Below, piece by piece: positions 6,916 to 8,479 of a DNA stretch of 26,397 bases (position 1 is the first letter of the stretch; each line of letters opens with the position of its first letter). The DNA lies in NCBI GenBank assembly GCA_041906865.1, contig JAYRIK010000087.1:1-26397 (forward strand). The letters run 5' to 3'. The notes under the pieces were generated by a model. It worked only from the letters and a program-made list of their open reading frames with translations, did not search any database and was not told the origin of the DNA. The translations under genes were made by a program, and so were the position numbers. This DNA is from Candidatus Auribacterota bacterium. Its GTDB lineage: Bacteria; Auribacterota; JACPWU01.

Positions 6916-6947
6916 GAAAACATGCCGGGAGACGGAATTGAACCGCC
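6916..6947 (-). repeat. 32-nt direct repeat of the tRNA-Phe 3' end plus 7 nt of trailer (att-like)
   Basis: GAAAACATGCCGGGAGACGGAATTGAACCGCC at 6916-6947 is identical to 7167-7198. Confidence 0.92.
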
Positions 6948-6952
6948 CCCAC

Positions 6953-7100
6953 GTCATCCCAATATTCATCGGGATTCCCCAGAGGGAAAACCAAGGTTTT
7001 TCCTCAAGGCGCTCATCCTTCACAATGTTCAGGATTCGCTGTACTCCTTTTCCTATAAGGAATCATTTCACTCATTGGGGAGACCAGGTGTTCTCCCCAA
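6953..7100. repeat. Mosaic of short hairpins between the two tRNA-Phe 3' copies
   Basis: GTCATCCC..GGGATTCC (6953-6978, degenerate family A), GAGGGAAAACC/GGTTTTTCCTC (6982-7005), ATCCT/AGGAT (7015-7035), TTGGGGAGA/TCTCCCCAA (7075-7100). Confidence 0.7.
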
Positions 7101-7173
7101 ACCCCTCTCTTGTGTCGGCTAAATTTTAGACTCTAAGTGGAGACAAAGGGAAAACTATCTGAGAGTGAAAACA

Positions 7174-7246
<73 letters not shown>

Positions 7247-7847: not shown

Positions 7848-7887
7848 CTCCTTTAATCTTGAGAAAATCCGGGAGTAACGGGGCTCG
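7848..7887 (-). repeat. 40-nt imperfect direct repeat of the tRNA-Asp 3' end plus trailer, including part of the ahpC RBS
   Basis: CTCCTTTAATCTtgaGAAAATCCGGGAGTaACGGGGCTCG vs 8041-8080 CTCCTTTAATCTacgGAAAATCCGGGAGTgACGGGGCTCG; 36/40 identical. Confidence 0.9.
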
Positions 7888-7894
7888 GCGCCTT

Positions 7895-7963
7895 CGTCCC
7901 TTCGGGACTCCGGTCGGCCATCCGCTCCTTTCAATGTCTCACATCTGCCACCGGCAGATGTGA
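7895..7963. repeat. Hairpin cluster between the tRNA-Asp 3' copies
   Basis: GTCCC-TTC-GGGAC and TCACATCTGCC-ACC-GGCAGATGTGA (7939-7963, 11-bp stem). The TCTGCC-N3-GGCAGA core recurs at 12264-12278. Confidence 0.75.
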
Positions 7964-8062
7964 TTGTTGGTTAGGCGGAGCTCCTATTCGATCCCCTCGA
8001 TTCAACCAACCTATTCCTTTACTCTCTTAACTGTCTTTTACTCCTTTAATCTACGGAAAATC

Positions 8063-8136
8063 CGGGAGTGACGGGGCTCGAACCCGCAACCTCTGCCGTG
8101 ACAGGGCAGCGCTCTAACCAATTGAGCTACACCCCC
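8063..8136 (-). tRNA. tRNA-Asp (GTC), CCA not encoded
   Basis: GGGGGTGTAGCTCAATTGGTTAGAGCGCTGCCCTGTCACGGCAGAGGTTGCGGGTTCGAGCCCCGTCACTCCCG folds into a cloverleaf with anticodon GTC and discriminator G. Confidence 0.97.
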
Positions 8137-8384
8137 TTTAGAAAAAATGCTAGCCTTCTCCTTAAATACCCTCTACCAAATCCTGTTTTTAATTGCTTTT
8201 CTCTAATTTGAGCGTCCTGTTCTGATAAACATGCTTCATAATATGCAAGTCGCCAAGAAACCATATGACTTGTCGTTTTCGTTTTACCTCTCTTATGTTC
8301 CCCTATACGTCTACGTAAATCATGGGTAAAACCAATATAAAATCGATTTTCGGCTTTGCTGTACAAAACATATACGTACCACAT
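8127..8384 (-). CDS. Stand-alone GIY-YIG nuclease (85 aa); stop codon lies within the tRNA-Asp 5' end
   Basis: MWYVYVLYS..FYIGFTHDLRRRIGEH..YYEA..AQIREKQLK fits the YhbQ/UPF0213-like GIY-YIG pattern. Start moved to ATG 8384 because the track's extension runs through a hairpin and tRNA fragment. Confidence 0.92.
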   Translation of the reverse strand: MWYVYVLYSKAENRFYIGFTHDLRRRIGEHKRGKTKTTSHMVSWRLAYYEACLSEQDAQIREKQLKTGFGRGYLRRRLAFFLKGV

Positions 8385-8392
8385 AGCATGCT

Positions 8393-8457
8393 CCCCGCCA
8401 AAAGCTTCGCATTTATGCGGGCCCGTTCCAATGTTCGCTATGCGAACTTTGGTCGGG
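8393..8457. repeat. Structured element upstream of the GIY-YIG gene
   Basis: Near-inverted ends CCCGCCAAAAG / CTTTGGTCGGG enclose hairpins CGCAT-TT-ATGCG and GTTCGC-TAT-GCGAAC. Confidence 0.7.
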
Positions 8458-8479
8458 TAACCAATTGAGCTACACCCCC
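8458..8479 (-). repeat. 22-nt direct repeat of the tRNA-Asp 5' end (acceptor 5' strand into the D-loop)
   Basis: TAACCAATTGAGCTACACCCCC at 8458-8479 is identical to 8115-8136. Confidence 0.92.

Follow-up and report, generated by a model that had tools for sequence, protein, structure and literature searches.

A tRNA-Asp gene on a 26,397-nt contig of a “Candidatus Auribacterota bacterium” (JAYRIK010000087.1, assembly GCA_041906865.1), hereafter referred to in its full length as the window, has probably been colonized by two independent selfish DNA elements, each of which would survive through a partial duplication of the tRNA gene that leaves one copy intact. Element 1 is a 321-bp cassette (positions 8457 to 8137) that encodes a small protein of the GIY-YIG nuclease family and is located between a dead copy of the 5' end of the tRNA and the intact gene. 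Element 2, which contains no open reading frame (ORF) and is described here by a covariance model designated R1, lies on the other side of the gene, between two copies of its 3' end that start in the T-loop; this T-loop element is a new finding at this locus. The two elements are considered independent because most copies of R1 are not accompanied by a cassette, because a congeneric genome with R1 copies has no cassette nuclease, and because the tRNA-Val gene of that genome carries R1 beside an empty cassette site.

The window (contig C87) is part of a 1.89-Mb metagenome-assembled genome (MAG) that is 82% complete (G000). The closest matches to its Icd protein come from MAGs labeled Chlamydiae or Chlamydiota (78% and 67% identity), which is only a weak hint at its taxonomy. 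The window genome was compared with G001, a 97%-complete genome of the same genus in which the flanks of the tRNA-Asp locus are 92 to 94% identical to those in the window, and with G002 and G003, two genomes of the same family (f1). The survey of the cassette family covered 80 homologous loci from species-representative genomes, and a tRNA gene was regarded as linked if it was on the same strand and overlapped the end of the ORF or was no more than 50 nt away from it. The R1 model was run on 79 genomes of the phylum, and public sequencing runs were examined as assembler contigs only.

Structure of the tRNA-Asp locus

The repeats around the tRNA-Asp gene, all of them on the minus strand (Table 1), are far beyond what could be expected by chance. 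The dead 5' copy adjoins the original upstream flank, which in G001 leads directly into the tRNA. The cassette separates the tRNA from its own promoter region. The double hairpin of the cassette is followed by the tetranucleotide GAGC (8393 to 8390), which corresponds to the 3' strand of the D-stem and therefore places the hairpins inside the D-loop of the dead copy. The nuclease gene is preceded, at a distance of 8 nt, by a Shine-Dalgarno-like motif, GGGGAG, and borrows its last codons and its stop from the live tRNA: the final codons GGG GTG TAG are nucleotides 2 to 10 of the tRNA, with the TAG (8129 to 8127) formed by U8-A9-G10. The sequence of the tRNA is identical in the window and in G001.

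On the 3' side, the flank in the proximal copy of the duplicated segment deviates from the ancestral version, which has been retained by the distal copy and by G001. Past the AT-rich spacer, the R1 element consists of an inverted copy of the T-loop and the 3' strand of the T-stem (7996 to 7987), two GC hairpin modules, and an invariant GGCGCC (7892 to 7887). The tRNA part of the distal copy has a single C>T change, and its flank, which holds the ribosome-binding site of the peroxiredoxin gene (7839 to 7276), is identical to the flank of the empty site in G001. In a search of the hairpin regions against Rfam, no family was found; the two tRNAs were the sole matches, and the only other hits at an E value of ≤1 were two at chance level. 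No NCBIfam model scored above its cut-off.

The initial annotation had described a 5' copy of the tRNA broken in the D-loop, a 65-nt hairpin element, an 85-residue GIY-YIG protein encoded up to the 5' end of the tRNA, an intact tRNA-Asp, and a hairpin cluster followed by a 3' copy that starts in the T-loop. All these parts were recovered, and the hairpin element could be resolved into two adjacent hairpins.

The GIY-YIG nuclease and its relatives

The product of the cassette gene matches PF01541 over residues 1 to 71 with a score of 58.4 bits (the cut-off is 22.6) and has no other Pfam domain. Judging from its sequence, it consists solely of the catalytic domain and lacks any DNA-binding domain. 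The residues Tyr5, Tyr16, Arg26, His30, and Glu62 are invariant across 34 homologues and, by analogy with I-TevI, are predicted to be catalytic. In profile matches, the best relatives with solved structures are the UPF0213 proteins 1zg2 and 1ywl, SLX1, which is a structure-specific nuclease, and I-TevI.

The nearest homologues, with 60 to 73% identity, come from the Patescibacteria/Saccharimonadota, Elusimicrobiota, Verrucomicrobiota, and other phyla, and no cassette nuclease was found in G001, where the GIY-YIG genes are uvrC and one unrelated small gene. With its closest relatives in other phyla and none in the congener, the cassette spreads horizontally, and the distribution of the nuclease disagrees with the host phylogeny. 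Two tRNA-Asn-linked nucleases (L055 and L059) from MAGs labeled Clostridia and Elusimicrobia are nearly identical, with branch lengths of 0.02 and 0.012, which reflects either recent transfer between phyla or mis-binning of a MAG.

Distribution of tRNA-linked cassettes

A lack of tRNA-fragment association among homologues, which the initial annotation had named as a ground for its refutation, is clearly not what the survey shows. A same-strand tRNA gene is found at the end of the ORF in ∼56 of the 80 loci. The stop codon falls at tRNA position 8-9 in 23 of them and 1 to 16 nt before the tRNA in ∼20 more, and a copy of the tRNA 5' end of at least 16 nt, located 40 to 170 nt upstream of the ORF, is present in at least 18. 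The C termini of the homologues (GV, GT, GS, GN, GVAQW, and others) are translated tRNA 5' ends. The region that extends from the 5' copy to the ORF is conserved between phyla and includes the break after the D-loop GGT(T)A, two hairpins in a fixed layout, and the GAGC(GC) motif. In Patescibacteria and other loci, this layout reads CCCGCC.AAAG-(inner hairpin)-CATT.GGCGGG, followed by CCCGCC.AAATG-(inner hairpin)-TTTTGGCGGGGAGC. The sequence GGCGGGGAGC in front of the ATG was at first taken for a remnant of the T-arm; this assignment was rejected, as it is a conserved motif of the cassette, and GAGC represents the 3' strand of the D-stem.

Variants of this arrangement include a subfamily associated with tRNA-Gly, in which the tRNA copy is broken in the anticodon loop, and a clade from the Verrucomicrobia (including an Akkermansia MAG) with a mirror-image 3' arrangement, which looks to have been kept vertically across the Verrucomicrobiota. 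In the Akkermansia muciniphila MAG (locus L089), a tRNA-Val gene comes first, then a GIY-YIG ORF that has its ATG in the duplicated 20-nt 3' flank, and then a partial tRNA; the latter is interrupted by a hairpin, and a 26-nt 3' copy comes last.

In the nuclease tree (77 sequences), tRNA types are clustered, with 39 changes of type compared to 52.8 in shuffled data and none of the 200 shuffles reaching 39. Despite this clustering, the type switches among tRNAs with similar D-arms. The protein from the window is placed in a Val/Ile/Ala/Thr clade.

The layout seen in the window recurs at other tRNA genes in genomes of the same family. Contig C2 of G000 carries a second cassette, of a different subtype (25% identity), at tRNA-Val(gac), where a 5' tRNA copy with the anticodon arm replaced by a small hairpin is followed by an ORF with its stop at U8-A9-G10. 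In G003, tRNA-Ser(gct) shows the same layout with a truncated ORF. In addition, remnants that comprise the 5' copy and the double hairpin but no ORF are found in G000 upstream of tRNA-Thr(cgt) (C136:2410-2622) and tRNA-Pro(cgg) (C271:2770-2915), documenting the decay of the cassette; in the latter, the dead copy resumes after the hairpins and reaches approximately nucleotide 32. Full-text searching of the literature found no description of tRNA-fused GIY-YIG cassettes.

The T-loop element

The R1 arrangement is found at 10 of the 27 tRNA genes detected in G000, within ∼100 to 210 nt downstream of the tRNA. It starts with an AT-rich spacer and an inverted copy of the T-loop and the T-stem 3' strand of that particular tRNA, followed by two hairpin modules, the first with a covarying closing stem (GCYCC paired with GGRGC) and the second with an invariant stem, GGCCGACC paired with GGCGCC, that encloses a small inner hairpin. 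Directly after GGCGCC comes a direct copy of the same tRNA, from T-loop position 56/57 to the 3' end. The R1 core is ∼110 nt long and, with its precise junction (GGCGCC beside C56/G57 of the T-loop), occurs beside the genes of more than 20 tRNA species and of tmRNA, always on the same strand and downstream of the gene, on its T-loop side. In contrast to this fixed right junction, the length of the duplicated target segment varies from 17 to ∼76 nt.

Within the phylum, R1 is restricted to two families. In family f1, there are 10 copies in G000, 16 in G001 (including one at the tmRNA gene), 5 in G002, and 2 in G003; two genomes of a second family (f17) have 2 to 3 copies each, and the remaining 73 of the 79 genomes, from various families, have none. 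At the tmRNA gene of G001 (C6:61980-62630; locus L179:681-1331, minus strand), the inverted T-arm copy and the 3'-end copy that go with R1 are both those of the tmRNA, which identifies the T-arm as the target.

Among 37 copies from six genomes, in an alignment that was fitted to the model and therefore somewhat favors pairing, 93.6% of the cells are paired, compared to 35 to 44% in slid controls. Compensatory changes are seen in 24 of the 32 base pairs, and the outer helix covaries with the identity of the tRNA. This covariation supports a three-way-junction structure for R1, in which the closing helix would pair the inverted T-arm copy with the duplicated 3' copy. The core closest to the one at tRNA-Asp is the G001 copy at tRNA-Leu(aag), with 90% identity. 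The inverted T-arm copy of the former fits tRNA-Asp at 9 of 10 positions and that of the latter fits tRNA-Leu, which means that this piece is locus specific.

A comparison of the two congeners shows that the T-loop element is gained and lost rapidly. Copies at Arg-tct, Gly-gcc, Leu-tag, Ser-gct, Thr-tgt, and Val-gac are shared by G000 and G001, those at Asp, Arg-ccg, Arg-tcg, and Thr-ggt are found only in G000, and those at Lys-ctt and Gln-ttg are found only in G001. At tRNA-Val(tac) of G001 (C1:433932-434274, locus L180), two 100% identical R1 units are arranged in tandem, each with its own copies of the tRNA 3' end and of the flank, which looks like the result of unequal crossing-over between direct repeats. 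The spacer at this locus is ∼80% identical to the true 3' flank, so that the foreign part consists only of the inverted T-arm copy and the core. In copies other than the one at tRNA-Asp, the spacer is likewise a diverged duplicate of the 3' flank of the tRNA. A tRNA-Arg cluster of G000 (locus L009, C264:2818-3834) has small hairpins of the form TCCGCC-N3-GGCGGR inside the tRNA 3' copy and the inverted T-arm copy of R1; here, hairpins are nested in hairpin elements. As with the cassette, full-text searching found no description of such T-loop repeats.

Empty sites in related genomes

In G001, the genes icd, tRNA-Asp, and ahpC are in place without either insert. The upstream flank joins position +1 of the tRNA directly, ahpC starts 30 nt after the tRNA, and the downstream flank is that of the distal copy in the window. 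In G002, there is no room for either insert at tRNA-Asp and no R1 match there. The tRNA-Val gene of G001 represents the empty site for the second cassette of G000. Such a polymorphism, with the insert missing from intact alleles of a conserved site at tRNA-Asp (G001 and G002) and tRNA-Val (G001), is the pattern of a free-standing homing endonuclease gene. By parsimony, both insertions at tRNA-Asp would have arisen in the lineage of G000; alternatively, relatives may have lost them precisely through recombination between the direct repeats.

The sequence of the window is present in activated-sludge sequencing runs. The cassette is carried by one such run, and the junctions of the 3' element at tRNA-Asp were found in three others. 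Neither an empty-allele joint nor RNA evidence was found in the contigs assembled from public runs.

A search for empty alleles had been suggested in the initial annotation, which regarded the entire locus as one compact mobile unit. The mobile, tRNA-tied nature of the cassette is supported by the empty sites and by its relatives in other phyla. The union of the 5' and 3' parts in one unit does not hold, given the 3' element beside an empty cassette site at tRNA-Val of G001 and the presence of R1 in genomes without the nuclease.

Features of the locus

Table 1. Coordinates of the features at the tRNA-Asp locus of the window
Feature	Positions	Strand	Remarks
Dead 5' copy of tRNA-Asp, nt 1 to 22	8479-8458	Minus	Exact 22-nt direct repeat (D2) of 8115-8136; breaks in the D-loop after GGTTA
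Double GC hairpin of the cassette	8457-8393 (hairpin 1, 8457-8422; hairpin 2, 8421-8393)	Minus	Adjacent pair
GIY-YIG ORF, 85 aa	8384-8127	Minus	PF01541 match, E value 9e-16
Intact tRNA-Asp(GTC)	8136-8063	Minus	ARAGORN; Rfam RF00005, 70.5 bits
Proximal copy of the 43-nt duplicated segment	8080-8038	Minus	T-loop C56 to the tRNA 3' end plus ∼23 nt of flank
Hairpin-rich insert without ORF, 150 nt	8037-7888	Minus	Between the proximal and distal 3' copies (repeat D1)
AT-rich spacer	7999-8037	Minus	No recognizable match to the tRNA 3' flank at Asp
ORF-less structured element (R1)	7998-7888	Minus	R1 match, 111.5 bits
Distal 3' copy, T-loop to 3' end plus ancestral flank	7887-7845	Minus	43 nt, 88% identical to 8080-8038

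Elsewhere in the window (6916 to 7246, minus strand), the 3' end of the tRNA-Phe gene is duplicated as well (at least 20 nt plus flank). The copies enclose a hairpin mosaic of ∼220 nt, which is not of the R1 type and contains an NTS/SRM-like hairpin. The tRNA-Phe locus of G001 does not have this duplication.

Comparison with known systems

By analogy, the locus would work most like a free-standing homing endonuclease gene, such as segB of phage T4, and it also resembles the Ssn nucleases and hairpin repeats. SegB is a GIY-YIG homing endonuclease encoded by a free-standing gene in the tRNA gene cluster of T-even phages (PMC2330249). The likeness is that of a GIY-YIG gene lodged among tRNA genes rather than in an intron, and SegB favors its own inheritance by cutting DNA that lacks its gene. 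SegB is a protein of ∼220 amino acid residues with a DNA-binding domain, and its gene is not known to be associated with duplicated tRNA parts, a fusion to a tRNA, or flanking hairpins. In contrast, the 85-residue protein of the window is a predicted nuclease with the catalytic domain only, and the tRNA duplication, the fusion, and the hairpins are features of the window.

Proteins of the Ssn family (cd10448; SsnA/NTS; Chenal et al. 2025) are single-domain GIY-YIG enzymes that act as site-specific, hairpin-guided nucleases on single-stranded DNA (PMC11893778). They share with the cassette the ∼90-residue single-domain protein and the location of the gene beside GC hairpins that also occur in the genome without an ORF. 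The target duplication and the shared stop codon are features of the window and not of Ssn loci, and PMC11893778 makes no mention of tRNA. The SRM pattern of Ssn has no match within 1.5 kb of the nuclease gene, and its six matches in the genome, compared to one to five in shuffled sequences, do not amount to an enrichment. The presence of canonical Ssn SRM hairpins at the window gene was therefore rejected: the hairpins here are different, and those of the SRM type were found only at a small GIY-YIG paralogue on contig C250 of the same genome (9540 to 9918, locus L125). This paralogue, to which the window protein is 41% identical, has GTCAT...ATCCA hairpins in agreement with the published SRM motif on either side and adjoins a uvrB-like gene; it is probably a canonical Ssn locus. 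Together with the profile matches to UPF0213 structures, the identity to this paralogue is indirect evidence for a possible placement of the window protein in the cd10448 clade.

In fungal mitochondria, the mORFs are selfish endonuclease ORFs that bring along a replacement end of the host gene, fused in frame. As in the window, a selfish nuclease ORF resides in an essential gene whose function is kept through partial gene duplication. The mORFs reside in organellar protein-coding genes, whereas the cassette is found in a bacterial tRNA gene, is accompanied by hairpins, and has a duplication that seems to be derived from the target.

The T-loop element resembles, on the one hand, REP/BIME, REPIN, and MITE repeats and the Rickettsia palindromic element, with which it shares short, GC-rich, structured, ORF-less multicopy sequences, possibly moved in trans, and, on the other hand, miniature att-flanked inserts, yet it fits none of these classes. 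Unlike REP and MITE repeats, R1 is strictly confined to the T-loop side of tRNA and tmRNA genes and has long target duplications of variable length and a three-way junction that is closed by the target sequence. In contrast to REP/RAYT systems, there is no RAYT/Y1 transposase (PF01797) in G000 or G001; no integrase was found in these two genomes either, in searches that covered PF01797 and PF00078 only and not tyrosine integrases. PF01797 is present in G002, G003, and G027. The tRNA/tmRNA islands and prophages likewise duplicate the 3' part of the tRNA from the T-loop on, include tmRNA among their targets, and leave the gene intact. Compared to these, the inserts described here are only 110 to 190 nt long and have no integrase gene, the same core is found at more than 20 tRNAs, and there is a closing helix that involves the inverted T-arm copy.

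Possible mechanism and alternative explanations

In many tRNAs, the duplication boundaries fall on landmarks of the tRNA, namely position +1, the D-loop, the anticodon loop, the T-loop, and the 3' end. Such structural landmarks exist only in the folded single strand. The nuclease is probably structure or single-strand specific, like the related Ssn enzymes, and might nick the loops of an extruded strand of the tRNA gene. Host repair or replication restart would then use an occupied allele, or a similar tRNA, as the template for copying the hairpin-ORF module, and the survivors would be only those events in which the cut-off part of the essential tRNA gene had been duplicated. Later, the ORF or the entire insert could be lost by recombination between direct repeats. 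If RNase P cuts the transcript at +1, a non-stop nuclease mRNA would be left, which could keep the levels of the nuclease low.

Several points weigh against this scheme and against the view of both elements as selfish. The proposed mechanism rests on the anatomy of the loci. A hydrolytic GIY-YIG enzyme cannot by itself join DNA, and the scheme does not explain how a cassette that enters a new type of tRNA acquires a perfect duplication derived from its target, nor where the inverted T-arm copy comes from. Element 2 does well in G001, a genome that lacks the cassette nuclease as well as a Y1 transposase and a reverse transcriptase. Coexisting empty and occupied alleles were not seen in any one population among the contigs of the public runs. 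Finally, in a comparison that rests on four loci and a hand-read alignment for tRNA-Val, orthologous R1 cores of G000 and G001 are 97 to 99% identical, equal to or above their coding flanks, and the spacers diverge more, so that the core might have a host function rather than being purely selfish.

That conservation of the core is one of the arguments for an explanation, unlikely on balance, in which the 3' element and perhaps the hairpins as well are signals beneficial to the host (a terminator, a 3'-processing or stability element, or a decoy) that were spread by duplication and kept by selection, and the nuclease is an Ssn-like host factor that acts on hairpins and not a homing enzyme. The strong covariation, with one tolerated change from C-G to U-G, and the constant same-strand position downstream of tRNA or tmRNA are in keeping with such a role, as are the activities of Ssn enzymes, which target hairpin repeats in the genome and modulate transformation (PMC11893778). 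Nevertheless, the presence of the element varies at orthologous tRNAs between congeners, only about one-third of the tRNAs carry it, and most genomes of the phylum have none; in addition, the target duplications are typical of insertion events, and the nuclease gene has a patchy distribution across phyla. Insertion of a single composite element, comprising the nuclease, a replacement tRNA, and the 3' hairpin module, into the T-loop or D-loop of a resident tRNA appears improbable. The outer pieces of tRNA-Val on contig C2 (nt 1 to 55 and nt 56 onward) do together make up a single tRNA interrupted in the T-loop, and both cassette-bearing tRNAs of G000 also have the 3' element. However, the 5' copy in the window ends in the D-loop and not in the T-loop, most 3' elements have no cassette (G001 has 16 of them and no cassette nuclease), and the version with one composite element inside the T-loop was rejected on the grounds that tRNA-Val of G001 has the orthologous 3' element beside an empty cassette site.

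It is very improbable that the loci are scars of integrase islands (with attL and attR bordering an island since deleted) or decayed tandem duplications of tRNA genes combined with chance REP-like hairpins, even though duplication of the tRNA 3' end from the T-loop is the classic signature of islands that integrate into tRNA and tmRNA genes and several hairpin families are abundant in G000. The same ∼110-nt core with a precise junction and tRNA-specific copies at each of more than 20 tRNA species and tmRNA cannot be explained by a single integrase att site. Besides, dozens of genomes that are phylogenetically far apart have 5'-end duplications with a fusion of the ORF at +1, and the empty site in the sister genome G001 is clean, with no scar. 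Least probable of all is that the 3' element spreads like a retroelement, with reverse transcription primed at the target from a nick in the T-loop. This would account for the fixed right junction and the variable length of the duplications, but these include the 3' flank, which is absent from mature tRNA, and a search for reverse transcriptase (PF00078) gave no match in G000 or in G001, a 97%-complete genome with copies specific to its lineage; this route was accordingly set aside. A route through a Y1/HUH enzyme (IS200 or RAYT) was likewise set aside, there being no PF01797 match in these two genomes.

A different view, rather doubtful but not far-fetched, is that a single undescribed class of mobile DNA, represented here in two forms by the cassette and the T-loop element, recognizes the folded cloverleaf of tRNA and tmRNA genes and not a DNA sequence. 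In that case, a tiny structure-specific GIY-YIG enzyme could nick the loops and the acceptor-stem ends of the extruded strand, double hairpins would be copied into the loop, and the duplication would cover the stretch from one nick to the other, so that an essential single-copy gene could be invaded and yet not killed. The inverted T-arm copy might then act as a target-matching guide or clamp.

Implications

Few sequences of the cell are as conserved and as essential as the genes for tRNAs. If the locus is indeed occupied by two independent selfish elements, as appears probable, a 0.3-kb selfish cassette family, for which no published account was found, enters such genes in many phyla without breaking them. 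In genome annotation, these cassettes yield tRNA fragments, fused ORFs, and pseudo-att sites. The family could account for the role of many orphan single-domain GIY-YIG proteins and could yield very small nucleases with defined structural targets. The T-loop element can serve as a model of repeat DNA that targets the structure of RNA genes, and its fast turnover in two congeners opens it to experiment. Finally, the stop codon shared by the nuclease gene and the tRNA suggests a simple tie between the expression of a parasite and the processing of a tRNA.

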